Source: Escherichia coli
Lineage (GTDB): Bacteria > Pseudomonadota > Gammaproteobacteria > Enterobacterales > Enterobacteriaceae
DNA: 64,000 nt
Assembly: GCF_044324875.1 (NCBI RefSeq)
Contig: NZ_CP172185.1
Strand: one strand, 5' to 3'
Position 1 is the stretch's first letter. The number at the start of each line of letters is the position of its first letter. The position numbers and the translations under genes are program-made. The notes beneath the pieces are model-generated. The model did no database searches and had not been told where the DNA came from. It saw nothing but the letters and a program-made list of their open reading frames with translations. Positions 43,233 to 60,026 of the stretch are shown in pieces.

Positions 43233-46081
43233 TGACATTCTCGCTTTTCAGACGCCGTGAGGAAAAAGGTACAGCAGAGACCAGGGAACGACCGGAAGCA
43301 GAAGCGGGGGCATCTTCATCGGCCTTTGTTCCGCCCTGTCCTCCGGGGGCACAGCCCCTGCGACGTCCGGGACAGATGACCCGTGATGCTGAGGCGGCGG
43401 TTTATCATGCCGGTCCGTCGGTTATTGATTTTCTGCCATGGGTGGAATATCTGGATGAGGAGCAGTGTCTGCTGCTTGACGACGGGGTGTCGGTGGGAGC
43501 GGTCTATTCGGTGACGCCGGCCGCAACGGAAGGGCGTACGGAAGAGCGCCTGGCGCAAATCAGGGACATGGTGGAGGATGCCCTGCAGGACAGTTTTGAT
43601 GAGTACGACACGCATCCCTGGGTGGTGCAGTTCTACTGTCAGGATGAAAATGATGTGGATGCGTACCTGGACTATCTGAAGGGGTATGTGAAACCCCACG
43701 CGCAGGGAACGGCATTCACGGAGGCCTGGCTGGGTGAAATGGCCCGCCATCTCAGGGGGATTGCCCGTCCTGAGGGACTGTTTACGGACACCCTGGTCAC
43801 CGGTCAGCCCTGGCGGGGACAGCAGCGACGAACCCGGATGGTGGTTTACCGTCGTATCGGGAAGAACAATAACGATCCGATGTCGCCGGTGGCGATGCTG
43901 AACCAGGTCTGCGACCGCGTGGTGTCCGCACTGGGTGGAGCCGGTATCCGCTGTACCCGGATGAACGGTCAGCAGGTGCACAGCTGGCTGCTGCGGTTAT
44001 TTAATCCGGCACCGGACTGGATTGCCCGTGAAGAGCTGTACCGGATGGCCTCACGGGTTGATCCGCGTGAGCGTGGTGATGATGTGATGCCGGTGATGAC
44101 GGATTTTGCCGAGAGCCTGTGGTTTAACCCGCCGTATTCCGATCCGGAGAACGGGGTGTGGTGGCTGGACGCCATGCCGCACTGTGCCGTGGTGGTGGAA
44201 AAGCTGCGTACGCCGCCGGAGCCGGGGACCATCACCGGAGAGATGCCCCGTGGGGAAAAAACGGTGAATGCGCTGATGGACACCTTTCCGGAGGGAACGG
44301 TGATGTGCATGACCATCGTGGTGCAGCCCCAGGACACCCTGGAGGACCGTTTCACCCGGCTGTCGAAAAATGCGGTGGGTGAGAACACGGAATCCATCCG
44401 GGCGCGTCAGGACGTGAAGGTGGTGAAGGAGCTGCTGGGGAACCGGCACAAGCTGTACCGGGCAGGGCTCACCTTTCTTCTGCGGGCAGAGGATATGGAC
44501 AGCCTGAAACGCCGGCGTGTGGAGCTGACCACGGTGCTTCTGGGGGCTGGTCTGCAGCCGGTGCGGCCTGAGTTTGACGTGGGGCCGCTGAACAGCTGGC
44601 TGCGGGCGCTGCCGATGTGTTTTGATCCGGATACGGACAAAAAGCAGTGGTACACGCGTCTGATGTGGGTACAGCACATGGCAGGATTGTTGCCGGTGAC
44701 CGGCCGGGATACGGGGACCGGACATCCGGGGTTCAGTTTTTTTAACCGGGGTGGTGATGTGCTGACTTTCGATCCGCTGAACAAGCTGGACCGTACCCAG
44801 AACGCGCATCTGCTGCTGTTCGGACCAACGGGGGCCGGTAAATCGGCCACGCTGTGTGCTTCACTGTCGCAGGTGATGGCAGTACACCGTCCCCGCCTGT
44901 TCATTGCCGAAGCGGGGAACTCGTTTGGTCTGCTGGCCGATTATTTTGAGAGTCTCGGGCTGTCGGTGAACAAAATCAGCGTCAGACCGGGAACCGGTGT
45001 GACCCTGCCGCCGTTTGCAGATGCGCATAAACTGGTTGAGGAAGGGCAGGATCTGCAGTGCGTGGATGAGCACTCACTGCCTGATATTGAGGATGAAGCC
45101 GGGGATGAAGGGGAGGATAAACGAGACATTCTGGGCGAGATGGAAATCTCAGCCAGGATGATGATCACCGGGGGGGACCCGAAAGAAGAGGCCGCGCTGA
45201 AGCGTGCGGACAGGGCGATGATCCGCGAGGCGCTGCTGATGGCCACACACCGGACATACCGTGAGGGGCGGCAGATGCTGCCGGAGGATTTGCAGTCCGC
45301 CCTGTGGGAGATCTCCCGTGACAGCAGCCGTAACGATGTGCGCAATGCAAAGGCGGCGGAGATGGCGGAGTCTCTGGGGATGTTCACCCAGAAGGGGAGT
45401 TTTGAGGCGGAGTTGTTCAACCGTGAGGGCGAACTGTGGCCGGAAGCGGATGTGACGCTGATTGACCTGGGGCATCTGGCCCGTGAGGGGTATGAGGCAC
45501 AGATGGCGCTGACCATGGTGTCGATGACCAACATGATCAATAACATTGCCGAACGTGATCAGTATCTGGGGCGTGACATCGTGTTTGCGGTGGATGAGGC
45601 GCATATCGTGACGGTCAATCCGCTGCTTTCGCCGTACATGACGAAGGTTGTGAAGATGTGGCGTAAGCTGGGAGCGTGGCTGTGGCTGGCGACACAGAAC
45701 CTGAAGGATTATCCGGATGTGTCGGAGAAGATGCTGAATATGGCGGAATGGTGGGTGTGTCTGACGATGCCACCGGAGGAAGTGAACAACATTGCACGCT
45801 TTAAATCACTGACGGAAGAGCAGAAAGCGGTGCTGATGTCGGCGAGTAAGCTGTCCGGCTGTTATACCGAAGGCGTGGTGCTGGCGAAACAGATTGAGGC
45901 GCTGTTTCGTGCGGTGCCGCCAAGTCTCTATCTGGCGCTGGGCATGACGGAGAAAGAAGAGAAGGCTGAGCGGCGCATGCTGATGAAGGAACATAACTGC
46001 AGCGAACTGGAGGCGGCGTTCCATGTGGCGCGTAAGCTGGACAGGCTGCGTGGTCTGTCGGCCATGGAGGCGGATGTATGA
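43232..46081 (+). CDS. Conjugative transfer ATPase (VirB4/TraC-like, PFL_4706 class)
   Basis: 949 aa. Walker A GPTGAGKSAT. Walker B IVFAVDEAH. Confidence 0.88.
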   Translation: MTFSLFRRREEKGTAETRERPEAEAGASSSAFVPPCPPGAQPLRRPGQMTRDAEAAVYHAGPSVIDFLPWVEYLDEEQCLLLDDGVSVGAVYSVTPAATEGRTEERLAQIRDMVEDALQDSFDEYDTHPWVVQFYCQDENDVDAYLDYLKGYVKPHAQGTAFTEAWLGEMARHLRGIARPEGLFTDTLVTGQPWRGQQRRTRMVVYRRIGKNNNDPMSPVAMLNQVCDRVVSALGGAGIRCTRMNGQQVHSWLLRLFNPAPDWIAREELYRMASRVDPRERGDDVMPVMTDFAESLWFNPPYSDPENGVWWLDAMPHCAVVVEKLRTPPEPGTITGEMPRGEKTVNALMDTFPEGTVMCMTIVVQPQDTLEDRFTRLSKNAVGENTESIRARQDVKVVKELLGNRHKLYRAGLTFLLRAEDMDSLKRRRVELTTVLLGAGLQPVRPEFDVGPLNSWLRALPMCFDPDTDKKQWYTRLMWVQHMAGLLPVTGRDTGTGHPGFSFFNRGGDVLTFDPLNKLDRTQNAHLLLFGPTGAGKSATLCASLSQVMAVHRPRLFIAEAGNSFGLLADYFESLGLSVNKISVRPGTGVTLPPFADAHKLVEEGQDLQCVDEHSLPDIEDEAGDEGEDKRDILGEMEISARMMITGGDPKEEAALKRADRAMIREALLMATHRTYREGRQMLPEDLQSALWEISRDSSRNDVRNAKAAEMAESLGMFTQKGSFEAELFNREGELWPEADVTLIDLGHLAREGYEAQMALTMVSMTNMINNIAERDQYLGRDIVFAVDEAHIVTVNPLLSPYMTKVVKMWRKLGAWLWLATQNLKDYPDVSEKMLNMAEWWVCLTMPPEEVNNIARFKSLTEEQKAVLMSASKLSGCYTEGVVLAKQIEALFRAVPPSLYLALGMTEKEEKAERRMLMKEHNCSELEAAFHVARKLDRLRGLSAMEADV

Positions 46082-46464
46082 TGTGTCTGAAATACCCGAA
46101 ACCGGAGGTGATGACAGAGGTCATGCCCGGGGGCAGCGTGTTTTTTCTGCCGCCGCAGGGAAAACCGGGTGTTGCGGATCTGGCGCAACCGCATCTGCAG
46201 CGCCTGCGGTCACAGCTTGAACGCAGGCTGGGTACGCTGCATCGTGTGGTGTGTCAGCCCCAGCGGGTGGGGCAGAGCAGCAGTGTGGCCGTGACAGCAG
46301 AAGGGGCGTGTGGCGAGGTGCATCTTCTGCTGACAGTAGGGGGGCATGAGAGCTGGCCCTCTGAAGAGGAATACCGGCATCCGCGCTGGTATATCCAGGT
46401 GGTGGATGCGGCCGATCTGTTCTACCTGCTGCTCTGGCTGTGTGATGGCGGGCAGGAAGCGTGA
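46078..46464 (+). CDS. Hypothetical ICE protein whose 3' end is duplicated at 48806-48871
   Basis: ATGA coupling to the ATPase gene. C-terminus ...VVDAADLFYLLLWLCDGGQEA. Confidence 0.55.
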   Translation: MMCLKYPKPEVMTEVMPGGSVFFLPPQGKPGVADLAQPHLQRLRSQLERRLGTLHRVVCQPQRVGQSSSVAVTAEGACGEVHLLLTVGGHESWPSEEEYRHPRWYIQVVDAADLFYLLLWLCDGGQEA

Positions 46465-46491
46465 AGTAAAAATACTTCCACTGGCAAACTG
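46399..46491 (+). repeat. Direct repeat A (3' end of the 46078-46464 gene plus 27 bp)
   Basis: Aligns with 48806-48895. The coding part is near-identical; identity falls after the stop codon. Confidence 0.85.
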
Positions 46492-46504
46492 CTCCAGTGG
46501 AAGT
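46474..46504 (+). terminator. 11-bp stem-loop after the 46078-46464 gene
   Basis: ACTTCCACTGG-caaactgct-CCAGTGGAAGT, followed by T-rich sequence. Confidence 0.5.
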
Positions 46505-46552
46505 GTATGTAATGTTTTGTTGTTTATTTTAATTTCTTGTAAAACACAAACA

Positions 46553-46571
46553 CTAATTATTCTCATTATTG
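46553..46571 (+). promoter_or_regulatory. Candidate Fur box upstream of the TonB-dependent receptor
   Basis: CTAATTATTCTCATTATTG resembles GATAATGATAATCATTATC, with the best match in the TCATTAT half. Lies 50-70 bp upstream of ATG 46620. Confidence 0.4.
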
Positions 46572-46619
46572 TTTAGATTTGTGTATCTTTCGCCCGATTA
46601 ATATAATCGGAGAGAAGAT

Positions 46620-48707
46620 ATGCGAATAACCACTCTGGCTTCAGTAGCCATCCCTTGTCTCGGATTTTCAGTCAGCAGCATGGCTGCGGAAGATGTGATG
46701 ATAGTCACCGCATCCGGCTATGAAAAAAAATTAACCAGTGCAGCTGCGAGTGTTTCGGTGATCAGTCAGGAGGACTTGCGATCCAGCCAGTATCATGATC
46801 TTGGGGAGGCACTGAGATCCGTAGAGGGGGTGGATGTTGAAAGCGGTACGGGTAAAACCGGTGGACTGGAAATCAGCATCCGTGGAATGCCTGCCAGTTA
46901 TACGCTGATACTGATTGATGGTGTCCGTCAGGGCGGGAGCAGAGACGTAACCCCGAACGGTTTTTCTGCCATGAACACGGGGTTTATGCCACCTCTGGCC
47001 GCCATCGAACGTATTGAGATTATCAGGGGCCCCATGTCCACTCTGTACGGCTCTGATGCCATGGGGGGCGTGGTGAATATCATCACCAAAAAGAATGCAG
47101 ACAAATGGCATTCTTCAGTTAATGCCGGGCTGAACCTGCAGGAAAGTAACAAATGGGGGAACAGCAGCCAGTTTAATTTCTGGAGCAGCGGCCCCCTGGT
47201 GGATAATTCTCTCAGCCTGCAGGTACGTGGCAGCACGCAGCAGCGACAGGGCTCATCGGTCACATCACTGAGCGGCACCTCAGCCACGCGCATCCCTTAT
47301 CCAACAGAGTCACAGAATTATAATGCAGGTGCTCGTCTTGACTGGAAAGCAACGGACAAGGATATGTTCTGGCTTGATATGGATACTGCACGACAGCGTT
47401 ATGATAACCGGGACGGCCAGCTGGGCAGCCTTACTGGCGGTTATGATCGTACCCTGCGCTATGAACGTAATAAAATTTCGGCAGGTTATGATCATGCATT
47501 CACCTTCGGAACCTGGAAGTCATCCCTGAACTGGAATGAGACGGAAAATAAAGGCCGTCAGCTTGTACGCAGCGTACTGAAGCGTGATAAATGGGGACTT
47601 GCCGGCCAGCCGAGGGAGCTTAAGGAGTCGAATTTTATCCTGAATTCCTTACTGCTTGCACCTGTGGGTGAATCTCACCTGGTTACTGTCGGTGGTGAGT
47701 ACCAGAACTCATCCATGAAAGACGGGGTTGTTCTCACCAGTACAGGCGAAACCTTCCGGCAGAAAAGCTGGTCGGCATTTGTTGAGGATGAGTGGCATAT
47801 CACGGATGCGGTTGCACTGACTGTGGGCAGTCGTTATGAACATCATGAGGTGTTCGGAGGACACCTCAGTCCGCGGGCATATATGGTCTGGGATGTGGCT
47901 GATGAGTGGACGCTGAAAGGTGGGGTGACCACGGGATATAAGGCACCCGGCATGGGGCAGTTACATAAGGGGATCAGCGGTGTGTCCGGTCAGGGGCGTA
48001 CGAATCTTCTCGGTAACCCGGACCTGAAGCCGGAGGAGAGTGTCAGCTATGAAGCGGGCGTGTATTACGATAATCATGCCGGTCTGAACGCCAATATCAC
48101 GGGCTTTATGACAGAGTTCTCCAACAAGATCGTATCTTATTCTATTGATGATAATACCCGCAGCTATACAAACAGCGGAAAGGCCAGGACTCAGGGTGTG
48201 GAGTTTGCCGGCACACTGCCTCTGTGGTCAGAGGATGTGACGCTGTCTCTGAATTATACCTGGACGCAGAGTGAACAACGGGATGGGGATAATAAAGGTG
48301 CACCACTGAGTTACACCCCTGAGCATATGGTGAATGCGAAACTGAACTGGCAGATTACTGAAGATGTGTCATCATGGCTGGGTGCCCGTTACCGCGGGAA
48401 AACGCCACGTTTCACCCAGAATTATTCGTCACTCTCAGCTGTACAGAAGAAAGTGTATGATGAGAAAGGTGAATATCTGAAAGCCTGGACGGTACTGGAT
48501 GCGGGCATGTCGTGGAAAGTGACGGATGCACTGACGCTGAATGCAGCGGTGAATAATGTGCTTAACAAGGATTACAGTGACGTAAGTCTGTATCGTGCCG
48601 GCAGTGGTACGCTTTATGCGGGTGATTACTTCCAGACGGGGGCATCGACAACAGGTTATGTGATACCGGAGAGAAATTACTGGATGTCGCTGAGCTATCA
48701 GTTCTGA
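46620..48707 (+). CDS. TonB-dependent catecholate-type siderophore receptor (CirA/IrgA/IreA-like)
   Basis: Signal peptide, TonB box DVMIVTA, plug motifs RGPMSTLYGSDAMGGVVNIITKK, C-terminal ...YWMSLSYQF. Collinear with the CirA I remember. Confidence 0.85.
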   Translation: MRITTLASVAIPCLGFSVSSMAAEDVMIVTASGYEKKLTSAAASVSVISQEDLRSSQYHDLGEALRSVEGVDVESGTGKTGGLEISIRGMPASYTLILIDGVRQGGSRDVTPNGFSAMNTGFMPPLAAIERIEIIRGPMSTLYGSDAMGGVVNIITKKNADKWHSSVNAGLNLQESNKWGNSSQFNFWSSGPLVDNSLSLQVRGSTQQRQGSSVTSLSGTSATRIPYPTESQNYNAGARLDWKATDKDMFWLDMDTARQRYDNRDGQLGSLTGGYDRTLRYERNKISAGYDHAFTFGTWKSSLNWNETENKGRQLVRSVLKRDKWGLAGQPRELKESNFILNSLLLAPVGESHLVTVGGEYQNSSMKDGVVLTSTGETFRQKSWSAFVEDEWHITDAVALTVGSRYEHHEVFGGHLSPRAYMVWDVADEWTLKGGVTTGYKAPGMGQLHKGISGVSGQGRTNLLGNPDLKPEESVSYEAGVYYDNHAGLNANITGFMTEFSNKIVSYSIDDNTRSYTNSGKARTQGVEFAGTLPLWSEDVTLSLNYTWTQSEQRDGDNKGAPLSYTPEHMVNAKLNWQITEDVSSWLGARYRGKTPRFTQNYSSLSAVQKKVYDEKGEYLKAWTVLDAGMSWKVTDALTLNAAVNNVLNKDYSDVSLYRAGSGTLYAGDYFQTGASTTGYVIPERNYWMSLSYQF

Positions 48708-48805
48708 TAACAACAAAACCGATATAACGCACAGTAAAATGTAAACATGCTGCTGCTGTCACTGCAGGCAGTGGCAGCAGCGTATAACCGCAGATGTTTG
48801 TCCAT

Positions 48806-48895
48806 GTGGTGGATGCGGTCGATCTGTTCTGTCTGCTGCTCTGGCTGTGTGATGGCGGGCAGGAAGCCTGAAAAAACTGCCGCTACTGGCAACTG
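48806..48895 (+). repeat. Direct repeat B (displaced 3' gene fragment encoding VVDAVDLFCLLLWLCDGGQEA*)
   Basis: Aligns with 46399-46491. Confidence 0.85.
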
Positions 48896-49244
48896 TGTCG
48901 TGGTGGCATGTTACTGGCAGGTGGTTTACGGAGTATGGGCCCAATTCTGGCCTGCCGGAACATGCCCTTATAACCTTTAACACAGCGGTTACATAAAAAA
49001 CAATGTCTTTTGTGCACAGCAGTATTGTGGCTGAAAGTGAAATAAAAGCGCGATATTATACTGCTTCGCGTCCGGTTGTCATTATCATGGATAGTGCGTT
49101 ATGTTTATAAAGGCGTGACGGACGCTTAATTCTCACGCAACGCACCCCTCTTAAATTTTCAGTTTCCGGTTTTGAATTTATTGCTGCTATTGGTGCTGCT
49201 TATGCGCACGCTGTAAGTCGGATATTGTCTGACGGAGGCGTACA

Positions 49245-49640
49245 ATGTACCGGATTTTCTGTTCCCTGTTTTTCCTGCCGCTGGCAGCGTCTGCCGGCAC
49301 AACAATTTATACCGATTCTCAGCACCTCCCCGTTAATCCTCCCGATGGTGTCAGGGTGGTTCTGCTGGATGCACCGGAGCAGCTTCAGACCCGCTTTTTT
49401 GGCACGTTGCCTGCTGATGCGGATAAGGCTGAAGCGGTGGTCAGGGCACGTATGCAGTCTCCCGAATGGCAGATGATGCAGGCGGAACTGGCTGCTCATT
49501 ACCGCGATGTGGCACATGCCTGGTCGCTGGGCGTGAAGAAATATCCTGCCGTGGTGTTTGATGACAGTGAGGTGGTTTACGGCATCACGGATGTGGTGGT
49601 GGCCGGGAAACTCCGTACTGAGGGAGGAGTTCAGCCATGA
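49245..49640 (+). CDS. PFL_4709-family-like periplasmic ICE protein
   Basis: Signal peptide ...LAASAGT. Immediately upstream of the TraU-like gene. Confidence 0.55.
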   Translation: MYRIFCSLFFLPLAASAGTTIYTDSQHLPVNPPDGVRVVLLDAPEQLQTRFFGTLPADADKAEAVVRARMQSPEWQMMQAELAAHYRDVAHAWSLGVKKYPAVVFDDSEVVYGITDVVVAGKLRTEGGVQP

Positions 49641-50611
49641 TGACCCTGAAAAGTCGTCTGCGTGCCTGCGTACTGTTACTGAGTGTGGCATCACTGCCTC
49701 TGGCGTCTGCGTCACTGAATACTGCCAGCATTATCGCCAGTGCGGCGGCACCGGACTGTATCAGCTGGCGTGTCAGCGGGATTTGTTACTGGCTTTACTG
49801 CAGCGCGTCTGGCTGTACGGTCAGAACTTCCGTGAAGGTGACACATTTCATCCCGGAAGTGGTTATTTCCACCTATACGGCACCGGGTGGTAATCCCTGG
49901 AAAGAGATGTCGCTGGTCAGCCGGACCGCAGGTGGCCCGGAGAATGCCATCACTGACGGCCTGTCCGGGCTGAGTGCCGGCGGGGGAAATCCGGCGGATA
50001 TGAAAATACAGGGGAAGCGCCGTTCAGCCATTCGTTTCAAATACGCAGATGCGCTGGGTCATCCGGCCACACAGCTTATCGGCGGGATGGTACCCGGATT
50101 CAGCTGTGATTCACCGGTGACACCGGCCATGCCCTATTTCCTCAGTACCCTGGACAGCATCGTCTGGCGAACGGGATTACCTGAATCCCTGTATCCAGAG
50201 GCACAGGTTCCCGGCAAACGCGAGATTGGCACCCAGGCCGATAAAAACATGTGGGGGAGCGTTTATCCCCGGAGTGGTTTTGTGATGCAGACCGATGATG
50301 ACCGGGCAGCGGCGGTGGTGGCCCAGCGGGTGGCCGACATTATCACGCGGACGGGGGAGCCGCATGTCTACAGGGAGGTTAAGGGCGTGAAACGTGACGG
50401 CTACTGGCCCCCGGAGGCGGTGGAGGAAAACACCGGCACCCGAAATCACAAATGGCAGCGACTGACGCCGTCAGTGTCGCGTTCCTGTGCCGTTTTCCCG
50501 GATGGTGAACATCAGGCAGCGGAGAACGGTAATGCCGCCTTTTCACTGTGGCAGCCCTATAGCTGCTGTAAAAAGCGCGGGCAGCGATTTCTTGGCAGTA
50601 CGAATTTTTAA
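49637..50611 (+). CDS. TraU-like ICE protein (PFL_4710 class)
   Basis: Signal peptide. Cys-rich CISWRVSGICYWLYCSASGC. Confidence 0.65.
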   Translation: MMTLKSRLRACVLLLSVASLPLASASLNTASIIASAAAPDCISWRVSGICYWLYCSASGCTVRTSVKVTHFIPEVVISTYTAPGGNPWKEMSLVSRTAGGPENAITDGLSGLSAGGGNPADMKIQGKRRSAIRFKYADALGHPATQLIGGMVPGFSCDSPVTPAMPYFLSTLDSIVWRTGLPESLYPEAQVPGKREIGTQADKNMWGSVYPRSGFVMQTDDDRAAAVVAQRVADIITRTGEPHVYREVKGVKRDGYWPPEAVEENTGTRNHKWQRLTPSVSRSCAVFPDGEHQAAENGNAAFSLWQPYSCCKKRGQRFLGSTNF

Positions 50612-50617
50612 GGAACC

Positions 50618-52039
50618 ATGATGATGAAGATGAAAACAGGTGTGGTGGCACTGAGTGTGATGCTGTGCTGCAGTACTCCGGTGATGGCTGATCTTCTTTC
50701 TCTGCCGAAACTGAATGACAGCACGTTCGGTTACGGGAAATCCGTTGATGGCGCCGTATCCGACAAACTGTTCTATACGCTGGGTGGCGGCTCGGTGATC
50801 TCACAGCCGGCCACGCGCAGCAACATGCAGAAGCTGGGTATGGACCTGGGCTGGAGCAGCGATCTGATGTGCGGCAACTTTGACCTGAAGACCACGGTGG
50901 GTAATCAGCTTAACGGCGTGACTGAAGGCTTTAAAAATCTGATGGGGGATGTGATTCAGGGGGCGACCGGCGCCGTTGCCAGTCTGCCGGCGATGGTGAT
51001 ACAGCGTGCCAATCCAGGCCTGTACGACATGATCACCAACGGTGTGCTGCAGGCGAATGTGGCTTTCGACAAGGCGCAACTGAACTGCCAGAACATGGCA
51101 AAACGGATGATGGACTTTTCTGATCGCAGCAAATGGACGCAGGCTGCGATGCTGGAAGAGTACAAGAAGGTGGTGAACAGCGGTGACGGTGATGCGGTGA
51201 AAGGGGATGAGGCCGGGCGTCAGGCCACCGGGAAGGAGGGTAAGAAATGGATTGGCGGACAGCAGCGCGGCGGGGCAGGTCAGCCCGCCATCCGGCCGGT
51301 GCATGATCTGACAGCGGCCGGGTTTAACATGATGAACAGTCTGCCCGTGACCAGTAGGGCCAGCGTCAGTGCCGGTAACTGTAACGGCAGCGCCTGTGAG
51401 ATGTTCCGGAATGCAGAAGAGGCCGCTAAGGCGGTGGTAAAGGTGCTGGGTGATCGTACCATGCGCACCTGTACGGATGCGAAGGCCTGTACCAGCGGGG
51501 ATAATGAACAGCAACAGGGAACCGTTGCAGGAACGGGGTTTGCGCCGGTGCTGGAAGAGGCGACTAGGGTGAACACGGAACAATTGGTCCGTCTGGTGAA
51601 TGGTCAGGAAAAACCCACTGCAGAGAATCTGGCAAAACTGAAAACCGGCAGTCTGGCTGTATCTGCAGGGGTGATCCATGCCCTGCGTCGTGACCCGGAC
51701 AATATGTCCCTGACGTCACGGCTGGCGGGAGAACTGGCGATGGCGCATACCGTGGAAACGGCTCTGGTGATGCGCAGAATGCTGCTCACCGGGATGTCTG
51801 AGCCGTACGCGGCCGCAGAAGATGCCGCGATTCAGGAAGGCGACCGGCGTATCGCTGCACTGGACAGGGAAATCATGGCGCTGAAGAACGAGATGGAGCT
51901 GAAACGCGATCTGGCACGTAACAGCGTGCTGACCATCATTGAACGCGACAATGAGCGCGTGGGCAGCAACCCGATGATCCAGCCTGCAGACAATACTGAC
52001 AGTCGTGTCCGGGCACTGGACATTCCGGACGGGGAGTAA
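50618..52039 (+). CDS. PFL_4711-family-like periplasmic ICE protein
   Basis: Signal peptide ...TPVMADL. 473 aa. Confidence 0.55.
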   Translation: MMMKMKTGVVALSVMLCCSTPVMADLLSLPKLNDSTFGYGKSVDGAVSDKLFYTLGGGSVISQPATRSNMQKLGMDLGWSSDLMCGNFDLKTTVGNQLNGVTEGFKNLMGDVIQGATGAVASLPAMVIQRANPGLYDMITNGVLQANVAFDKAQLNCQNMAKRMMDFSDRSKWTQAAMLEEYKKVVNSGDGDAVKGDEAGRQATGKEGKKWIGGQQRGGAGQPAIRPVHDLTAAGFNMMNSLPVTSRASVSAGNCNGSACEMFRNAEEAAKAVVKVLGDRTMRTCTDAKACTSGDNEQQQGTVAGTGFAPVLEEATRVNTEQLVRLVNGQEKPTAENLAKLKTGSLAVSAGVIHALRRDPDNMSLTSRLAGELAMAHTVETALVMRRMLLTGMSEPYAAAEDAAIQEGDRRIAALDREIMALKNEMELKRDLARNSVLTIIERDNERVGSNPMIQPADNTDSRVRALDIPDGE

Positions 52040-52043
52040 GCGT

Positions 52044-52403
52044 ATGGCGATGACTCAGGGGACAAAAGCGGGGCTGGTTCTGAAGGGCGTTAAGGTGGCC
52101 GGCATGTGGCTGTCGGGCCTTATTGCCATGATGATTCTGGCCCTCCTGGTGGCTGATACGGGCATGCGGAATACGCAGGAAGTGGAAGCATTACGGCTCT
52201 GGCTCCACGAGACACGTTTCGGATGGCTGGGGTGGCGGGTGTGCCTCTACGGTGCGCTGGCATGGGGATGCCGGAAAACCTGGCGTGCGCCGGGGTTCAG
52301 ACCGGAATACCGCCGTCCCTTTGCGCGGATTTGTCTGGTCAGTGCCCTGTTTGCGTTACTTTGCGAGTACAGCATTTTTTTCGGACCGGGGGTTGAACTG
52401 TGA
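52044..52403 (+). CDS. ICE membrane protein
   Basis: GGGGAG upstream of ATG 52044. Three TM helices. Confidence 0.5.
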   Translation: MAMTQGTKAGLVLKGVKVAGMWLSGLIAMMILALLVADTGMRNTQEVEALRLWLHETRFGWLGWRVCLYGALAWGCRKTWRAPGFRPEYRRPFARICLVSALFALLCEYSIFFGPGVEL

Positions 52404-53923
52404 CCACGAATAACTATCTGGAACACTTTCTGACCCTGCTGGGCTGGCTGGTGAATAATGGCCTGTGGGATCTGCTGACGGGGACGGGGCTGTTTGCCCT
52501 GCCACTGGCCTTCAGGGTTATCGGGATCTGGCTGAAAGTGCGGGAAGAGGGGGCGGATGAGGGAAATAAAGGGATGCTCTCACTGCCCCGCATTGAGCAT
52601 GCCCTGTATGGTGCATTTTTTGTGATGGTGGCCTGTTGTGTGCCGCTGGTACAGGTGACGCTGGACACGCTGAAATTTGATCGCAGCCGTGCCCAGACCT
52701 GCGGTGTGTGGACACCGAAAGCACCCGGTGATACCGGGTACAGCGGGGTGATCAGCAGCCTGGGTGACAGGACAGCGGCCGCCCCGGTGTGGTGGGTGGT
52801 GGTGCATAAACTCTCCAAAGGTGTGACGCAGGCTGCTGTGGCTTCCATTCCCTGCCGGCCGGATATACGGCAACTGCGTTTTGAGGTGCAGCGGACATTC
52901 ATTGCGAACCGGGCGCTGGCCGACGAGCTGCAGGATTTCACCAACGACTGTTACTCGCTGGCGCTATATCAGTGGAAGCAGCGTGACCAGGGGATGACGA
53001 AGGACAGGAAGCTGCTTTCGGATATCAGCTGGATTGGCAGCAGTACGTTCATGCAGGGTGACTACGGAACACTGCAGTCGAAAATGCCACGTGCGGCATT
53101 CCCGTGGAATAGCGCCCGTGACAGCGGCCGTCCGGATACGGGACGGGGTGGTTATCCCACATGCCGTGAATGGTGGAGTGACAGTAGTGTCGGGCTGAAG
53201 AAGCGGGTGACAGGGGAAGTCGATGAAGGACTGTGGTTGCGTATTTCGGCGGCAATGAAAATGCTGGGGAACGCGCAGGCGAACTACCAGGAGGAAATCA
53301 TCAAACGTCTGGTGAGTCCGGCGAACCTGACCCTGTCACAGGGTGGTGAGGTGTACCGCGGCTATGGCGGTAATGCAGATATGACGGCGGCGAATGCGGT
53401 CACGCGTGCAGCAGGCACGGCGGGGTCTGCCGTTGCGAGTCTGGCAGCGTTTCCGGCGTTTGATGCGATGCGGCAGGCGCTGCCGATGGTGCAGAGTATT
53501 CTGCTGATGGCGGTGTATATCATGCTTCCGTTGATTCTGGCGTTTGCGGCGTATGAATTCAGCACGCTGATCACACTGACGTTTGTGGTGTTTGCGCTGA
53601 ACTTCCTGACGTTCTGGTGGGAGCTGGCGCGGTGGCTTGACAGCTGGATGCTGACGGCCTTGTACAGTTCGGACACGCATTCCCGAGTGAACATGATGGG
53701 GCTGCAGAACACGTCGGATGATATCATCATGAATTTTGTGATGGGCACGATGTTTATTATATTGCCAGCGGTGTGGCTTGGGGCTTTATCCTGGGCGGGT
53801 ATTAGCGCAGGTGTTGCTATTGCTAATGCAGCCAGAGATGGAACAAGTGCAGCACATCAAGCAGCTTCAAAGGCAGGAGATCTTGTTGGGAAAGTAGGAA
53901 ATTCTTTAGGTAAAAATCAATAA
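52400..53923 (+). CDS. TraG N-terminal-domain conjugal transfer membrane protein
   Basis: GTGA coupling. Polytopic. 507 aa. Last gene of the high-GC T4SS block. Confidence 0.7.
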   Translation: MTTNNYLEHFLTLLGWLVNNGLWDLLTGTGLFALPLAFRVIGIWLKVREEGADEGNKGMLSLPRIEHALYGAFFVMVACCVPLVQVTLDTLKFDRSRAQTCGVWTPKAPGDTGYSGVISSLGDRTAAAPVWWVVVHKLSKGVTQAAVASIPCRPDIRQLRFEVQRTFIANRALADELQDFTNDCYSLALYQWKQRDQGMTKDRKLLSDISWIGSSTFMQGDYGTLQSKMPRAAFPWNSARDSGRPDTGRGGYPTCREWWSDSSVGLKKRVTGEVDEGLWLRISAAMKMLGNAQANYQEEIIKRLVSPANLTLSQGGEVYRGYGGNADMTAANAVTRAAGTAGSAVASLAAFPAFDAMRQALPMVQSILLMAVYIMLPLILAFAAYEFSTLITLTFVVFALNFLTFWWELARWLDSWMLTALYSSDTHSRVNMMGLQNTSDDIIMNFVMGTMFIILPAVWLGALSWAGISAGVAIANAARDGTSAAHQAASKAGDLVGKVGNSLGKNQ

Positions 53924-53970
53924 ATGGAAAAGAAAATAGCGTTTGTCGGAGTACAAACGCTATTAAAATT

Positions 53971-54177
53971 TTATTTTTGTTCTTCCCATTGTTGATATTC
54001 CCAATAGGGGCGAGAGTCTAAAAAGGCAGGTAATTCATCATTTTTTTCTGGTGAATTTGTCAATTTTATGGAATTTGACAACTCAACAGCCAAAAGTTTT
54101 TTCAGCAGAGAGCTGAAAGTCCATGGGGTATCAGATGTTTTGCAACTCCACATTGCTTTTTCTGTTTCATTGTTCAT
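53971..54177 (-). CDS. Small hypothetical protein
   Basis: 68 aa. Low-GC cargo region. Confidence 0.35.
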   Translation of the reverse strand: MNNETEKAMWSCKTSDTPWTFSSLLKKLLAVELSNSIKLTNSPEKNDELPAFLDSRPYWEYQQWEEQK

Positions 54178-54474
54178 CTCGTGCCTCCTGTAAGTGGATA
54201 ATCATCCTGGTACTATCATACGTGTTGTATGATAAATATTCAATGCTTGCAAATCCAGGTGTAATTGTCTGATTTTACTCTTCTTGCTGTACAGCCTGTG
54301 ATGTGGGCCAGGACGTGGCACTGCATGTCACAATAGCTCCAGGAGCTTCAGTCTCAGCCCTGCTGAACATTGTGTGATTAATTTTTAAAAATGCGAAAAG
54401 AATAATCTCTCTTTTTAGTCGTCCGGCTATGCCTTAATTCTCCCTGAGTCAAAACCTGTATCAGGAGAAGCTGA

Positions 54475-55047
54475 ATGAAAATATCAAAACTGGTTGTTAT
54501 GGCTACAGTATGTTCCACGTTGAGTGCATGCTCTGTGGAAGAGATGGCTGCTGTGAACAAGAAAATCAGTGACGGTGCATTTGCTGTGACGAAAGCGCTC
54601 AACGGGGGAACGGGCTACGCGGATAATGGTATGCCGATCCTTAACAAGCAATTGCCGCCGGAGCAGGATAAACGCGAAAATATTATTGATGTCCCTGTTG
54701 ATGTGGATACCGCAGCAGGCCGACTGAAACGCTATTACAAGTTTTACTCAAATGATGAGGTGAATGCGATACGCAATAACGGCACAACTGACGGAAAATG
54801 GCAGGCAAGTGCGATTATTGACAATGGACATATCTGGGATGCGATGCCGGGCAGTTACTACAAAATGGGAGGAAACTGGCGTAAAAGCAGCTTTGATGAT
54901 CACCTGACGATTGAGGTGGAAAAGAACGGTAAGGGAAGCCGGGTCTATATCACCTATGCTTCAGCTTCTCAGGCGCATTTGCAGGCAAGTTCTCTTGAGC
55001 CTCTGTTTAAGCGAGTGAAGGATGTGGCTGAAGGAAAGGTTCGTTGA
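54475..55047 (+). CDS. Lipoprotein of unknown function
   Basis: Lipobox TLSAC. AGGAGAAG RBS. Confidence 0.6.
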   Translation: MKISKLVVMATVCSTLSACSVEEMAAVNKKISDGAFAVTKALNGGTGYADNGMPILNKQLPPEQDKRENIIDVPVDVDTAAGRLKRYYKFYSNDEVNAIRNNGTTDGKWQASAIIDNGHIWDAMPGSYYKMGGNWRKSSFDDHLTIEVEKNGKGSRVYITYASASQAHLQASSLEPLFKRVKDVAEGKVR

Positions 55048-55270
55048 TGAGCACATCACGGGCAAGCCCTTATGGCTAAAGGAGAGGGAGATTGCCCGTG
55101 GCGGCCCACTTTTTTAATCATTTTTTTACCATGTTGTCCAGTATTTTTACATAAGTGAAACATCTGGTGTTGTTTTCTGTTCATCGTGCTGGAAGTTACA
55201 GGGCTTGTAATTGAACGGGGAGAGATGTAATTTACGTGCGCAAAAATTTTACTCAAGGGGGAGAAAACCG

Positions 55271-55534
55271 ATGAAACCGAATATCCATCCTGAATACCGT
55301 ACTGTGGTGTTCCACGATACCAGTATCGATGAGTACTATAAAATTGGTTCGACCATCAAGACTGAACGTGTGATTGAGCTTGATGGTGTCACCTATCCGT
55401 ACGTAACTATTGACGTTTCCTCTAAGTCGCATCCTTTCTACACCGGCAAACTGAGAACTGTTGCTTCAGAAGGTAACGTGGCGCGCTTTAACCAGCGTTT
55501 CGGGCGTTTTGTTGACACCAAAAAAGGTGCCTGA
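55271..55534 (+). CDS. ykgM: Ribosomal protein L31 type B (zinc-independent paralogue)
   Basis: [31 protein letters not shown]...[28 protein letters not shown] lacks the CxxC zinc motif. Near-identical to the E. coli YkgM I remember. Confidence 0.9.
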
Positions 55535-55580
55535 CCAGAAATTGATCACAGGCGCGCTTGATACGCAAAAGTATTATTTG
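55469..55580 (+). repeat. Direct repeat 1 (last 21 codons of ykgM plus 46 bp downstream)
   Basis: Aligns with 58864-58975; 101/112 identical by hand count. Confidence 0.9.
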
Positions 55581-55640
55581 TATTATTTCTGATATTTTAT
55601 TTCAAAGGCGGTATTTACCGCCTTAATTAGTTTTATCCGT

Positions 55641-56813
55641 TTATTTATTTCCTTTTGAACGATTATGCGTAACGCAAAGCATTTCGCAATTATCAGGCTT
55701 ACTTTCACCCCCCTTACTCCATGCGGAAACATGGTCGGCTTCCATTTCTTTCAAAGCCCAGATTTTTGTTTTATTGGCATTATCTGAACTGGCGCAAAGG
55801 GGGCAGTTTGAAATACCTTGTTGCTCCGCTTTATCTGTTTGCCTTTTGTAGGCTTGTTTTTTAATTTTTTCATCAAAAAAGCGAATGTTTAATAAACGTT
55901 TATCAGATTGACCACCTAACACATATTCCCAGATGCCTTTAATGTTTTTTACACTATCATCCTGATATAATTTATTGATTTGCGTGGCTAATTCACCTGG
56001 ATTGTATGGTTTGTCTTTATAGGTTTCGTATAAACGCCCCCATTCCAGTCCGCACATTTCTTTTTTTACCTCGGTAAATGTGGTGTTAACCCAGTCAATC
56101 ACGCTATTGAAATAGGTTTTTAATTCCTTGATATTGTCATCATTACGATGGGCATTCATGTATTCGCTGATATTTCCTTTACTGACCCAGTTTAACGCAC
56201 ATTCTAAAATTTCCTGGCGTTTAACATTACCTTTGATGTAAGCACTCCATTTTTGCACATTTGAATTAGCAGAATTACTGAATTCTGCTTTTGCCAGTGT
56301 AACAAATTTGCCCGAATACACCGCATTCAATAATTCTTGTTCATTTAAAGGGACGCCAGTAATATTAATCGTTTTAAACCATTCTTTAATTTCGCTTTCT
56401 GTACCCTTACATTTGTAAATCAGCAAAGTGGTTTGTTTGATTTTCTCTTGTTGGTCTTGCGGTAAACTATGGAAATAGTATGGCGTGCCTTTATCATCTA
56501 TAATGGCGAATTTTCCGGTAACAAACCGCCCAATACTGGTAATGCGCTGCTGACCATCCAGTACTTCAAATGTATCTTCTGTATCTTTGTCAGGTTGATT
56601 AAAATAAATCAAACCGAGCGGATAACCTTTTAATACTGACTGGATAACTGCCACATCTTTCTTACCGTCTGCATAAATATAATTGCGTTGATATTCGGGC
56701 TGAATGGTAAGCTTTCCTGATAAACCAAACAAGCCTTTTCCCTCCAGTTCATTATAAACAAATCCATCGCACAATTGTTCAACGGTGATTGATGTATCTA
56801 ATTGTGTTTTCAT
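55641..56813 (-). CDS. DUF262 (ParB-like nuclease N-terminus, DGQQR) protein with a C-terminal HNH nuclease
   Basis: [14 protein letters not shown]-terminal CPLC...[11 protein letters not shown]...N...[12 protein letters not shown]. Confidence 0.8.
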
Positions 56814-56828
56814 TTTTCACTTTTCCTT

Positions 56829-57983
56829 TTATTTATTTTGTGGATTGATGTGTTTAATAAGAATGCGTCCATAAGTACGTTTGCCGTTAATAACTGTACA
56901 CCCACCCCTATCTTCAGAATGTTGAGAATAATTTAAAATCTCCAGTATCTCTTCGGGAGTTGATGCTCGTGTATTACCACTTGCTTGCCAAATAATTTCA
57001 AACTGTTCAGGACAATATTTATCCAAAAAGCTAATTGGCACGCCCATAACTCCTGCATAATCGCTAGGAATACCGTTAGTTCTGGGCACTTCAATAGCAT
57101 CATAATTGTCATATGCCTGATAAGCGTTAGGGTCATTGATAATTTGTTTGTTGTATTTTAAATTATCCGCCATAGACATTAGCTGTAAAGATTGATGCCG
57201 TCTGCCGTGTTCAATATTGGTAAACCAACAAGAGTTACCCAAACGAGTATAATCACCTATATATCCTAGACGCTCCGCTTTTTTCTTATCAGCTTCCCTC
57301 ACATCAGCACCTTGTGGTACAGCAAAAACCATATCATTACCATTCCCAGTAGCACCCAACCAAATTTTATTTCCTTTGATAAGTGGAAAAATCTCTTTAT
57401 AAGTAATAGCATTCATATTACCGATAACGGCAAACTGCTTTTTACCTTCCATAATCCATGCCATAAATTCGCGAAACAGCGAAAAAGGCGGATTGGTGAT
57501 AATTATGTCGCTTTCATCGCGTAGAGCTTTGATTTCATCACTACGAAAATCGCCATCACCCTGCAGGTATTGCCATTTAATATCTTTAAAATCAATTACA
57601 CCATCGTGATTACTGTCTTCGGTTAGCGTGTAAATTTTGCCATGTTTCTGGCTTTTATCACTGTCGTATTGTTCACTTTCGCTTTCAAATAATGATGGCT
57701 GATAAGCTGTGTTTAACTGTTTGGATTGATGAGCGTAGCTGGTACTGATGAGCTTCTTTAATCCAAGTCGTTCAAAGTTTTGTGCAAAATAAAGTGTGAA
57801 ATTGCTCCACTCGGGGTCATCACATGGTAAGAGAATGGTTTTGCCACGAAATACGTCTTTATTGAAATCAAGATAGGCATTCATCTCTTTTTCAATATCA
57901 TGGTATTGGGTGTAAAATTCGTCATTTTTGGCTTTTTTTGCAGCAGAAAGATTACTGTTTTTGGCAGAAATATTCTTTGACAT
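56829..57983 (-). CDS. N6-adenine DNA methyltransferase, EcoRI-methylase-like family
   Basis: NDEFYTQ N-terminus, ILLPCDD, catalytic IIITNPPFSLF. GGAGG RBS. Confidence 0.75.
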   Translation of the reverse strand: MSKNISAKNSNLSAAKKAKNDEFYTQYHDIEKEMNAYLDFNKDVFRGKTILLPCDDPEWSNFTLYFAQNFERLGLKKLISTSYAHQSKQLNTAYQPSLFESESEQYDSDKSQKHGKIYTLTEDSNHDGVIDFKDIKWQYLQGDGDFRSDEIKALRDESDIIITNPPFSLFREFMAWIMEGKKQFAVIGNMNAITYKEIFPLIKGNKIWLGATGNGNDMVFAVPQGADVREADKKKAERLGYIGDYTRLGNSCWFTNIEHGRRHQSLQLMSMADNLKYNKQIINDPNAYQAYDNYDAIEVPRTNGIPSDYAGVMGVPISFLDKYCPEQFEIIWQASGNTRASTPEEILEILNYSQHSEDRGGCTVINGKRTYGRILIKHINPQNK

Positions 57984-58033
57984 TTCAAACCTCCAAAACA
58001 GTATTGAAGGTTTGAAAAAACGGGGTTACATTA

Positions 58034-58152
58034 TGCTTGTTGCTTGTTGCTTGTTGCTTGTTGCTTGTTGCTTGTTGCTTGTTGCTTGTTGCTTGTTGCT
58101 TGTTGCTTGTTGCTTGTTGCTTGTTGCTTGTTGCTTGTTGCTTGTTGCTTGT
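58034..58152. repeat. Perfect heptanucleotide microsatellite (TGCTTGT)x17
   Basis: 119 bp = 17 x 7, no interruptions. Lies 51 bp upstream of the methyltransferase ATG and 60 bp downstream of the ccdB-like stop (both genes on the minus strand). Confidence 0.98.
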
Positions 58153-58211
58153 ATTAGCATTGGATTTTCCCTTTTACTTGTCAAGTATTTTCTTTTGGAT
58201 TCTGAAGTTTT

Positions 58212-58538
58212 TCACGTATTCGTAACGATGGCATCAAGTGCAGCGATAATTTCATTTCTGGATGAAGAAATATTACATATAAAATCTTTGCTGTTTATTT
58301 TTTTTGCATCCAGGAACGTGAGCGCCGGGGTGAACACATAGAAATCCGATGTCTCTATTTTAACTAATGGCGTTATCCTTTTCTTTTTAAGCTCAATATC
58401 ATTTTTTGATACCAGAGGCACGACTATCCTTGTGGTTAAATCGTCAAAATAATCATTCTGGAGAATAAGGTAGAACGGCCAGAGTTTATTCGTTCTGACC
58501 GATGGATTGCGGTATACATCAAATTGCTTTGGCATCAC
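58212..58538 (-). CDS. ccdB: CcdB-family toxin
   Basis: FDVYRN...PFYLILQNDYFDDLTTRIVVPL resembles the CcdB N-terminal pattern. The start overlaps the antitoxin stop. Confidence 0.6.
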   Translation of the reverse strand: MMPKQFDVYRNPSVRTNKLWPFYLILQNDYFDDLTTRIVVPLVSKNDIELKKKRITPLVKIETSDFYVFTPALTFLDAKKINSKDFICNISSSRNEIIAALDAIVTNT

Positions 58539-58783
58539 AGACTCCCAAAGAAATCGTCATCCGTCAACATTCCTGCTTTTGCCATAAATTTATTCATAGT
58601 GTGCATATCCTGTTTTTCTTCTTCCCGCTCTACAGTTTTGGCCTCGATAGCCTGTGCCAGAAGGTTATCCAGTGTTGCCGACAGGTTCATGTCCATACTC
58701 CGGGCTTTATCAACCAGTGAGGCCGTCAGGTAAACGTTGGTGCTTCTTTTGTTGCTGTTACGAGTGGTGGCAACTGTATTCAT
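58535..58783 (-). CDS. ccdA: CcdA-family antitoxin
   Basis: AGGAG 9 nt upstream of ATG 58783 (MNTVATTRNSNKRSTNVYLTASLVDKARSMDMNLSATLDNLL...). The longer track ORF to 58879 runs into the ykgM-derived repeat and is rejected. Confidence 0.6.
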   Translation of the reverse strand: MNTVATTRNSNKRSTNVYLTASLVDKARSMDMNLSATLDNLLAQAIEAKTVEREEEKQDMHTMNKFMAKAGMLTDDDFFGSL

Positions 58784-58863
58784 TATGCTTGCTCCTGTGC
58801 GCAGATGTATGCGCATAATTATGATGGGGGAAGGATAAACAATCAAGTGTGATCCTTCCGTTA

Positions 58864-58975
58864 GAAGGTAATGTGGCATGCTTTAACCAGCGTTTCGGGT
58901 GTTTTGTTGACACCAAAAAAGGTGCCTGATCAGAAATCGATCACAGGCGCTATTGATATGCAAAAGTATTGCTTG
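58864..58975 (+). repeat. Direct repeat 2 (displaced ykgM 3' fragment encoding [21 protein letters not shown])
   Basis: Aligns with 55469-55580. Confidence 0.9.
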
Positions 58976-59189
58976 AGTGTCTGAGGTCGGTTATTTTATG
59001 TTTCACAAGTAAAGAAGCATTTAAAAAGAAACTCACAGTCCATATTCCTTCATCCCCGGTTACGGGGATTTTTTTTAGCTGCTGTCTGGTGAGGAGGAAA
59101 GGGGCTGTGTCGGGCAGGGCGCTGTAAGGCTGCGATTGTCCGGGTGATGTCTGAACATGCGGTATGTTTGTGTTAAACAAGGGGGGAGT

Positions 59190-59378
59190 ATGTGGATACT
59201 GATTTTCTGGCTTTCAACACCATATTCAGTGTCATCCAGCGTTGCCAGACAACCAACGCTTGCTGTTCATTCTCAGGAGTTCGCCAGCGAAAGGGCCTGC
59301 AGGAATGCGCTGGCTGAGATGAAGAAGGTGAATGTCGGAGAACTGACCCTGAGGGGTATCTGTGTCTCAAAAGAATAG
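59190..59378 (+). CDS. Small protein with a hydrophobic N-terminus
   Basis: GGGGGGAG upstream of ATG 59190. 62 aa. Confidence 0.35.
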   Translation: MWILIFWLSTPYSVSSSVARQPTLAVHSQEFASERACRNALAEMKKVNVGELTLRGICVSKE

Positions 59379-59430
59379 TGGGGGAGAGGGAGCGAACCAG
59401 GCAGTTTTATCAGGAATGTGATTCCGGCGA

Positions 59431-59490
59431 ACCCGCTCGCCGCAGTCCGGCGACCGAACGTCAGTGAGTAAGCGGACGAGGAAGCGGAAT
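59431..59490. other. Sequence resembling the ColE1/pBR322 region that holds a PriA-type primosome assembly site
   Basis: CCCGCTCGCCGCAGTCCGGCGACCGAACGTCAGTGAGTAAGCGGACGAGGAAGCGGAATG compared with the remembered pUC/pBR322 ACCGCTCGCCGCAGCCGAACGACCGAGCGCAGCGAGTCAGTGAGCGAGGAAGCGGAAGAG. Confidence 0.3.
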
Positions 59491-59709
59491 GTCACCGTTC
59501 TTTCATAATGCACGAACGCTGTGTGGTTACATGGGGAAAGGATGAATGTCACCATTCTGTATCTGTTTCTGAAAAACAGTTCCGCTTGTTACCCTGTAAT
59601 TGCCGACTGGCGTTAGCATACAGAGGCGGTATTATCCCCTGTGATATCAGGGGTTATTTTGTTTTGCTCTGTAAGACCTGGCCAGCTATTATGCTGGCCT
59701 TTTTGTGGT

Positions 59710-59868
59710 TTATTGTTCGCAGTCCAGCATTGCAAATAATTTTCGTTTCTGTTCCTTCACATACTCAACATCAACAGTACAATCCAGATAACTTAACTCA
59801 TCTTCTGTCCAGGCATTGATGGATTCTTTTATTCGGTGTGTCACATCAGGTGTGAGTATGTCGCGCAT
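59710..59868 (-). CDS. Possible 52-aa ORF overlapping the end of the upstream 61-aa ORF
   Basis: MRDILTPDVTHRIKESINAWTEDELSYLDCTVDVEYVKEQKRKLFAMLDCEQ. Below the track cutoff. 28-nt overlap with 59841-60026. Confidence 0.3.
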   Translation of the reverse strand: MRDILTPDVTHRIKESINAWTEDELSYLDCTVDVEYVKEQKRKLFAMLDCEQ

Positions 59869-60026
59869 TTCTCAATGGTATCCCGGCTTATTTCTCCTCG
59901 TGGAGATTCAAGCAGAGGAATTACGGCCTGATCTCCCGGAGGGAGTATAAGACGTAATTCATATTTAAGCGTTTCGTTGAGTAAACTACAGAAAGCACTG
60001 TATTTCTCTTTCCGGGTACTGTTCAT
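59841..60026 (-). CDS. Small hypothetical protein (61 aa)
   Basis: ORF track entry. First gene of a possible two-gene pair. Confidence 0.35.
   Translation of the reverse strand: MNSTRKEKYSAFCSLLNETLKYELRLILPPGDQAVIPLLESPRGEISRDTIEKCATYSHLM

Follow-up and report, generated by a model that had tools for sequence, protein, structure and literature searches.

Introduction

Some integrative elements insert at the 3′ ends of genes; their targets are tRNA genes and, for the integrative and conjugative elements (ICEs) ICESt1 and ICESt3 and their recombinase-less cis-mobilizable element (CIME) derivatives, fda. In such attL/attR arrangements the target gene remains intact thanks to a substitute end brought by the insert, its original end comes to lie on the far side as a diverged direct repeat, and the empty site is a hybrid of the two repeats. 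Similar leftovers arise by Campbell-type recombination and by homology-facilitated illegitimate recombination, reportedly described by de Vries and Wackernagel in 2002 and by Prudhomme et al. in 2002, in which a short anchor sets the landing place, a leftover piece of the anchor stays beside the insert, and no dedicated recombinase is needed. Hybrid ICEs formed by recombination are known for SXT/R391. The subject of this report is a 64,000-nucleotide stretch of Escherichia coli DNA (contig NZ_CP172185.1 of assembly GCF_044324875.1; hereafter the window), which represents an ICE of the PAPI-1/pKLC102/ICEclc/SPI-7 class (PFL_47xx/TIGR0374x-0375x core). Two genes that are each single-copy in this ICE, a gene called here X and ykgM, are followed by a block of cargo and then by a displaced, diverged copy of their own 3′ end. 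This is a case of a known phenomenon, the recombination scar at a hotspot of a mobile element, and the displaced tails are probably the scars of homology-driven, non-site-specific recombination between diverged copies of the same ICE region, one event per site.

Cargo sites of PAPI-1/PAGI-type ICEs have been located between TraU and TraC (GI-Hotspot 3) and beside TraG (GI-Hotspot 2), and exchange of modules among related elements has been proposed for them (PMC12629846). The two sites in the window resemble these in their positions with respect to the core genes and in their cargo, which consists of a defence module, a toxin-antitoxin pair and a virulence/fitness gene. They differ in that gene-tail scars can be seen here, at both hotspots, in one E. 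coli lineage; a text search of that paper for 'direct repeat' gave no match, and gene-tail duplicates flanking cargo are not reported there. A paper on pheV islands (PMC11537424) has no bearing on this ICE. The entry of defence, toxin-antitoxin and virulence genes into ICE hotspots has so far been described only as "module exchange", and the two scars resolve the junctions at two hotspots to the nucleotide, in an E. coli ICE that is widespread and common in avian and extraintestinal isolates.

Results and Discussion

Displaced Gene Tails at Two Cargo Hotspots

The ICE was assigned to its class on the basis of a syntenic set of core genes encoding TraD, TIGR03747/45/50/49/52/51, a TraC-type ATPase, TIGR03757, TIGR03756 (TraU) and TraG_N. 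Core genes were called from the RefSeq annotation of 99.7-100% identical relatives and from the Pfam families DUF1525, TraU, TraG_N and TraG-D_C. The chromosomes of E. coli CM2 and TUM1886 match the region at 99.8-100% and are annotated as containing a PFL_47xx/TIGR037xx-type ICE. In hotspot 1, iha lies between TraC-X and DUF1525-TraU. In hotspot 2, a restriction-modification/ccdAB islet follows TraG_N, a gene for a 190-aa protein and ykgM; the far border of this hotspot, a helicase gene, is beyond the window. The features of hotspot 1 are:

43232..46081, plus strand: TraC-type conjugative transfer ATPase, left core gene of the hotspot (open reading frame list; RefSeq 'conjugative transfer ATPase' in relatives)
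46078..46464, plus strand: gene X, a conserved 128-aa ICE protein without a Pfam match, whose 3′ end is R1a (open reading frame list, Pfam search)
46394..46465, plus strand: R1a, the end of X; to the left of the core it equals the empty site, to the right of the stop it is cargo-linked
46426-46460 = 48833-48867, plus strand: perfect run of R1, 35 nt, where the exchange relating filled and empty sites falls
46491..48802, plus strand: iha cassette, with a promoter region, the iha coding sequence (46620-48707) and a hairpin (about 48750-48780)
48803..48872, plus strand: R1b, a displaced, non-coding remnant of the X tail that would encode ...VVDAVDLFCLLLWLCDGGQEA*
49245..50611, plus strand: DUF1525 (TIGR03757) and TraU-like (TIGR03756) core genes, right border of the hotspot

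The stop codon of the TraC-type ATPase gene overlaps the start of X, and PF11130 (TraC_F_IV) was matched on an ATPase homologue from a distant lineage. Homologues of X are 42-99% identical, and all those with a named source come from E. coli. A repeat search placed R1 at 46389-46465 and 48796-48872 (77 nt, 91%); by direct count, 46394-46465 and 48801-48872 are identical at 67/72 positions. The repeat covers the last 23 or so codons of X, and the similarity fades within at most about 25 nt past the stop codon. Judged by another iha lineage, R1b actually starts near 48803, and it runs directly into the native region downstream of X (48872-49244). The boundaries of the iha cassette were taken from homology with canonical iha loci and with L003 and L005 (L numbers denote loci read for comparison). 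The gene itself encodes a TonB-dependent receptor (Pfam Plug and TonB_dep_Rec), which RefSeq names iha.

In complete E. coli genomes the iha site was filled in 21-22 cases and empty in 14. The empty site (L001) consists of R1a up to the 35-nt run followed by R1b from the run into the native intergenic region. In att notation R1a is B-O-P′, R1b is P-O-B′ and the empty site is B-O-B′, an exact hybrid of both repeats, which means that a reciprocal exchange inside the repeat did happen, either as an insertion or as a deletion. Since X is joined directly to the native intergenic region also in an ICE lineage that is only 78% identical (L003), X without a displaced tail is the older state. Filled and empty ICEs are identical for 463 nt to the left and 179 nt to the right of the junctions; farther out, clusters of single-nucleotide polymorphisms separate them at 45817-45997 and 49012-49741 in 3/3 empty ICEs examined. 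All 22 iha-positive complete genomes have the displaced X tail in 100% identical form, and only as a remnant.

The features of hotspot 2 are:

52400..53923, plus strand: TraG_N core gene upstream of the hotspot (RefSeq annotation; PF07916)
55271..55534, plus strand: ICE-borne ykgM, type B ribosomal protein L31, whose 3′ end is R2a (Pfam Ribosomal_L31; RefSeq 'type B 50S ribosomal protein L31')
55466..55580, plus strand: R2a, the last 24 or so codons of ykgM and about 46 nt downstream, identical to R2b at 103/115 positions by direct count
55590..58863, minus strand: islet of low GC (about 37%), about 3.3 kb (Pfam, composition; boundaries from the islet copies in L003 and L006)
55641-56813, minus strand: GmrSD_N-HNH nuclease (Pfam)
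56829-57983, minus strand: EcoRI-family methylase (Pfam)
58034-58152: (GCTTGTT)16 tract
58212-58538, minus strand: ccdB (Pfam)
58535-58783, minus strand: ccdA (Pfam)
58861..58975, plus strand: R2b, a displaced remnant of the ykgM tail, followed by the native downstream region with a terminator at 59052-59069

The repeat search gave R2 as 55461-55580 and 58856-58975 (120 nt, 88%), with perfect runs of 29 nt (55506-55534) and 20 nt. Read in frame, R2b has two Arg-to-Cys changes in the L31 tail. The direct counts at both sites bear out what a preliminary description of this DNA had noticed, namely that each block lies between an intact gene and a displaced, diverged copy of the gene's tail with a short downstream stretch, and Pfam agrees with it that neither block has a recombinase.

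Among complete genomes the islet was found at ykgM in 2 and elsewhere in 4, and the ykgM site was empty in about 35; the R2b variant occurred only in the 2 with the islet at ykgM. A larger collection of assemblies has 1479 indexed blocks with the exact nuclease of the islet, and in 10/10 loci read it adjoins ykgM in this ICE. Both R2a and R2b are 100% identical to those of the window in nine of these ten independent loci, and the tenth (L019), which is without the ccdAB end, has R2a only. As the arms are identical in all copies examined, each arrangement arose once. The preliminary description had considered that the cargo sites might be unique to this strain. They are not, but each arrangement goes back to a single event and then spread. 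A predicted string for a near-isogenic empty islet site had 0 matches in metagenome_contigs, and the best islet-less relatives are 95.5-96% identical. Relatives of the GmrSD-HNH nuclease (65-76% identical) are scattered over many phyla, none in an enterobacterial ICE context, and say nothing about the ykgM arms.

The (GCTTGTT)n tract lies between ccdB and the methylase gene, 51 nt upstream of the methylase ATG. Its copy number is 16 in the window, 3-20 in ICEs that are otherwise near-identical (L011-L020 among the loci), 11 in L003 (15147-15258) and 8 in L006. At certain copy numbers an upstream open reading frame (46 aa in L003 and L109, 67 aa in L108) extends across the heptamers and terminates 1-2 nt short of the methylase start. 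Judged from the sequence, this looks like phase-variable translational coupling of the methylase.

The Repeats Compared with Chance, Paralogy and Site-Specific Integration

Ten dinucleotide-preserving shuffles of the window contained 0 direct repeats of at least 60 nt with at least 85% identity, versus 9 in the real sequence, and chance is thereby excluded. We consider it very improbable that the repeats are unlinked to cargo movement and reflect local paralogy or leftovers of tandem duplication, because X and ykgM are single-copy in the ICE, the empty iha site lacks exactly the cargo and one repeat, and the displaced tails occur only together with cargo. Two observations do point in that direction. 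One is a diverged tandem duplication of a gene end and its downstream region at the same TraC-TraU hotspot of a distant ICE lineage (L119), where the last 19 or so nt of a DUF1187 gene and about 150 nt downstream recur 225 nt later (8014-8180 and 8240-8405, 78-82% identical) without cargo between the copies. The other is a third look-alike pair (R3) in the ead/Ea22 region of the ICE, 122 nt long and 87% identical (20110-20231 versus 21340-21461):

20110..20231, plus strand: copy a, at the 3′ end of an ead/Ea22-like gene (104 aa); downstream are an XF1762-family gene and a gene for a 171-aa protein
21340..21461, plus strand: copy b, the syntenic tail of a resident Ea22-like gene that is full length in the related ICE L121

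Copy a together with the XF1762 gene is 96.6% identical to prophage DNA, and in L121 the tail and downstream region of the full-length Ea22-like gene are syntenic with copy b. These comparators indicate that in the third pair the displaced copy is the resident tail and that the intact tail came with the cargo. The same tail of about 150 nt ends different genes, followed by different modules, in lambdoid and P2-like prophages (L023, L024) and in the ICE. In this the third pair, and only this pair, is like the mosaic joints of such prophages at conserved gene ends. It is unlike R1 and R2 in belonging to an array of paralogous ead/Ea22-like genes with conserved ends and not to a single-copy core gene. 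It is thus an example of mosaic recombination, not a third case in the strict sense.

The preliminary description had envisaged a general route of cargo acquisition, with a core motif shared by the two repeat pairs as a thing to look for. No core common to R1 and R2 was found, their alignment scores being at or below those of shuffled controls, and this counts against a general route, as do the single origin of each arrangement and the occurrence of the same cargo elsewhere at other junctions without repeats. Scores of R1 against the third pair likewise did not exceed the range of shuffles. R2a and R3a scored 13 versus 9.7 ± 1.4 for shuffled sequences (12/300 shuffles reached 13), and the longest word common to any two of the three repeat pairs is 7-9 nt.

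The other proposal made there, site-specific integration at gene 3′ ends catalysed in trans, would make the blocks non-autonomous, CIME-like integrative cassettes: a tyrosine recombinase would insert them at an att core in the 3′ end of the gene, the element supplying a new end and displacing the native one. The geometry is that of attL and attR at the end of a gene that stays intact, the direct repeats contain identical runs of 35 and 29 nt, and the empty site, shown for iha only, is a hybrid. Candidate enzymes are at hand, since the ICE has tyrosine-recombinase-like genes at 61883-62839 and 62843-63583, and a P4-type integrase gene lies at 11088-12311. Nevertheless, Pfam finds no recombinase in either cargo block, and with no core common to both sites two specificities would be needed. 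Homology between the cargo-linked arms and the target continues beyond the run in both directions, for about 34-40 nt upstream at 88% identity and for 25-46 nt downstream. An 'attP' of this kind would be a complete target homologue of 110-160 nt, which is needed by homologous and not by site-specific exchange. Nor is the same core used recurrently, each arrangement having a single origin and L003, L005 and L006 having other junctions without arms. In addition, no dif-like site is present in the window, and the presence of the islet is tied to a diverged flanking haplotype (see below). Integration in trans at an att core is thus quite unlikely at these sites. The same differences, from the missing recombinase to the repeat-free cargo elsewhere, set the two blocks apart from the described attL/attR elements.

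Two further kinds of element were considered and rejected. A XerCD-dependent integrative mobile element exploiting Xer recombination (IMEX) does not fit, as no match to the E. coli dif site with at most 3 mismatches is present anywhere in the window. Insertion of a transposon or insertion sequence does not fit either: Pfam finds no transposase in the cargo blocks, no terminal inverted repeats are present at their ends (end-to-end scores are within those of shuffles), and the duplications are 70-115 nt long and diverged, versus the 2-14 bp expected.

The Same Cargo at Other Junctions

The preliminary description had asked whether repeats always accompany cargo, and they do not: iha, the islet and other hotspot cargo occur without tail repeats in other lineages. 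At the same hotspots no tail repeats were found in L003, L005, L007, L008, L115 and L118, and L119 has only its tandem duplication, which is unrelated. The same islet is present in L003 and L006 at 96-97% identity, between unrelated sequences, with boundaries corresponding to 55590-55600 and 58863 of the window and without ykgM arms. The iha gene of the window is a divergent allele, about 86% identical to the canonical iha of O157 and ST131. Its identity to the iha of L005, a decayed ICE with a different right junction, is 93%. In L003 iha is 94% identical to the canonical gene and occupies the same intergenic region, about 260 nt downstream of X, with no tail repeat. Thus iha occupies one hotspot in three ICE lineages but has a different pair of junctions in each, which argues against one att-type site.

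The similarity between the canonical O157/ST131 iha and the L003 copy (4549-7008) reaches 94% over 2.46 kb including the flanks (L021, L022), and from this resemblance the textbook iha loci may descend from this ICE hotspot. That the ICE-borne iha of the window is only about 86% identical to textbook iha matters for typing.

A Diverged Haplotype Block Contains the Islet

Mismatch maps against islet-less ICEs delimited one further feature:

55408..61500: diverged haplotype block of about 6 kb that holds R2a, the islet, R2b and the right flank

The block is 5-7% diverged from islet-less ICEs, whereas the 16 kb to its left (39001-55400) differ by only 0.2%. Divergence is 7% in the final 170 nt of ykgM, a segment that includes R2a; it is 5% over 58863-61061 and falls towards 63800. 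The islet-less ICEs all share another right-flank allele, and the allele of the window, which encodes a 188-aa protein, was linked to the islet in 24/24 contigs read. The position of the islet inside a block of 5-7% divergence, with 0.2% to the left, is a sign of homologous replacement among variants of the ICE. Forms with and without the islet are then related by a swap of a haplotype of about 6 kb with both repeats, through homologous recombination in the flanks. The repeat structure predates the swap. Of the two routes that the preliminary description had offered, recombination between ICE variants agrees better with the data than site-specific integration. For the islet, the outcome that it had named as speaking against insertion, simple homologous replacement, is what these population data show: islet presence follows a recombined haplotype block rather than a targeted insertion.

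The ICE backbones are visibly mosaic. TUM1886 (NZ_CP128970.1) holds two copies of the ICE, at 937965-951044 and 5037781-5056562 (L025), one of which, essentially the window, has cargo at both hotspots, whereas the other is empty at both. The partners for recombination between ICEs thus reside in the same cell. TUM9803 also has several copies of this ICE.

Probable Origin of the Displaced Tails

Homology-driven recombination between diverged copies of the ICE region remains the explanation that we favor. Incoming DNA would have carried the cargo beside its own version of the gene's end, and an exchange within the short homologous tail would have kept the gene intact and left a second, non-functional tail beyond the cargo. 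The exchange could have been a Campbell-type single crossover of a circular molecule made of tail and cargo. It could also have been a replacement anchored by upstream homology, the other end of which was joined illegitimately inside the 3′ end of the resident gene, as in homology-facilitated illegitimate recombination. The block flanked by repeats may then have spread among ICE backbones by ordinary homologous replacement of the haplotype block, and it could be lost again by recombination between the repeats. The pathway (RecA or an element-encoded recombinase), the topology and, at the iha site, the direction of the event are what we infer. Consistent with such a homology-driven event, homology between the cargo-linked arm and the target extends to either side of the exchange point and includes an identity run of at least about 25 nt. 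The minimal processing segment for RecA recombination in E. coli was reportedly put at about 25 nt by Shen and Huang in 1986, and both perfect runs (35 and 29 nt) exceed it. The likeness to Campbell-type and homology-facilitated illegitimate recombination is limited, as the partners here would be two variants of one mobile element and not a chromosome and foreign DNA.

Several points weigh against this explanation. A plain double crossover duplicates nothing; the explanation therefore calls for a circular intermediate or for one illegitimate joint, neither of which was observed. The polymorphism clusters a few hundred nucleotides out on both sides of the iha site mean that the direction of the event, insertion or repeat-mediated deletion, is not settled. 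The expected donor did not appear: strings for a contiguous cargo-type tail (P-O-P′) had 0 matches, for R1 in metagenome_contigs and for R2 in genome_contigs. Among complete E. coli genomes no intact X with a displaced-type tail was found, and the displaced-type tails of both pairs (R1b and R2b) occur there only as remnants. No protein homologous to X has a displaced-type ending, although clustering at 90% identity could hide one. An Ala-to-Val change in P0007 was examined as a candidate gene conversion and rejected, because the codon change is a different one and the assembly is rich in frameshifts. Finally, a run of 35 nt is not unusual given 5 mismatches in 72 nt; it was therefore not treated as an att core, and the 'core' may lack mechanistic meaning.

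The absence of displaced-type tails from any intact gene would be expected if both copies had started out identical. A single illegitimate joining at microhomology could have duplicated about 110-150 bp of the target, after which the copies decayed in their unconstrained parts (the coding remnant and the stretch from the stop codon to the cargo), the outer parts being kept ICE-like by recombination. This origin is possible but doubtful. In the two displaced coding remnants, 7/8 differences are GC-to-AT changes in the remnant, including the two Arg-to-Cys changes in the L31 tail; R2a and R2b share three derived sites with respect to all islet-less ICEs, and short microhomologies are present at the cargo junctions. 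On the other hand, we know of no process that gives target duplications of about 110-150 bp. Two of the R2b differences (AAT and GCA) also occur in the functional L31 gene of L007, and one R1b difference is common to L003, which in both cases suggests a different lineage rather than decay. The divergence of the repeats (7-12%) is also high versus that of the islet (3-4%).

The repeat-flanked blocks, cargo plus one tail copy, might be functional translocatable units, released as a circle by recombination between the tails and re-inserted at the same tail of a co-resident ICE. We regard this as unlikely. If true, it would amount to a recombinase-free (or trans-recombinase) cassette-exchange system at PAPI-1-class hotspots, with the tail homology acting as a portable address label. 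For the scars as such, the repeats predict loss of iha and of the restriction-modification/ccdAB islet by repeat-mediated deletion. The junctions can be tested by PCR, and the practical consequences are modest.

Other Features of the Element

The ykgM-type, zinc-independent L31 paralogue is a conserved passenger after TraG_N in several ICE lineages. In L007 the L31 gene (4956-5243) has a (GRF)n repeat insertion near the C terminus and is followed by hok/gef in place of the islet. An ICE-like L31B paralogue is also present in O157-type genomes (86.8% matches).

To the left of the ICE ParA gene, positions 1-12311 of the window have other island content, including a BON-domain protein, an outer-membrane beta-barrel protein, two dynamin-like GTPases (4607-8078) and the P4-type integrase, which is encoded on the minus strand. 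No tRNA genes were found in the whole window. Two tandem arrays were noted (23439-23839 and 29493-29636): one of a 36-nt repeat in 8 copies, and one of a 12-nt repeat that lies within a YhgA-like (Transposase_31) open reading frame. Four STAXI RNA motifs (RF01728) were detected at 26927-27233, 60945-61117 and 63740-63911, and one EFASI motif (RF02957) at 61642-61764. The STAXI copies at 60945 and 63740 are direct repeats of about 250 nt (94%) that bracket the Integrase_1/Phage_int_SAM_2 genes at 61883-62839 and 62843-63583, forming a repeat-bracketed module with recombinase-like genes.

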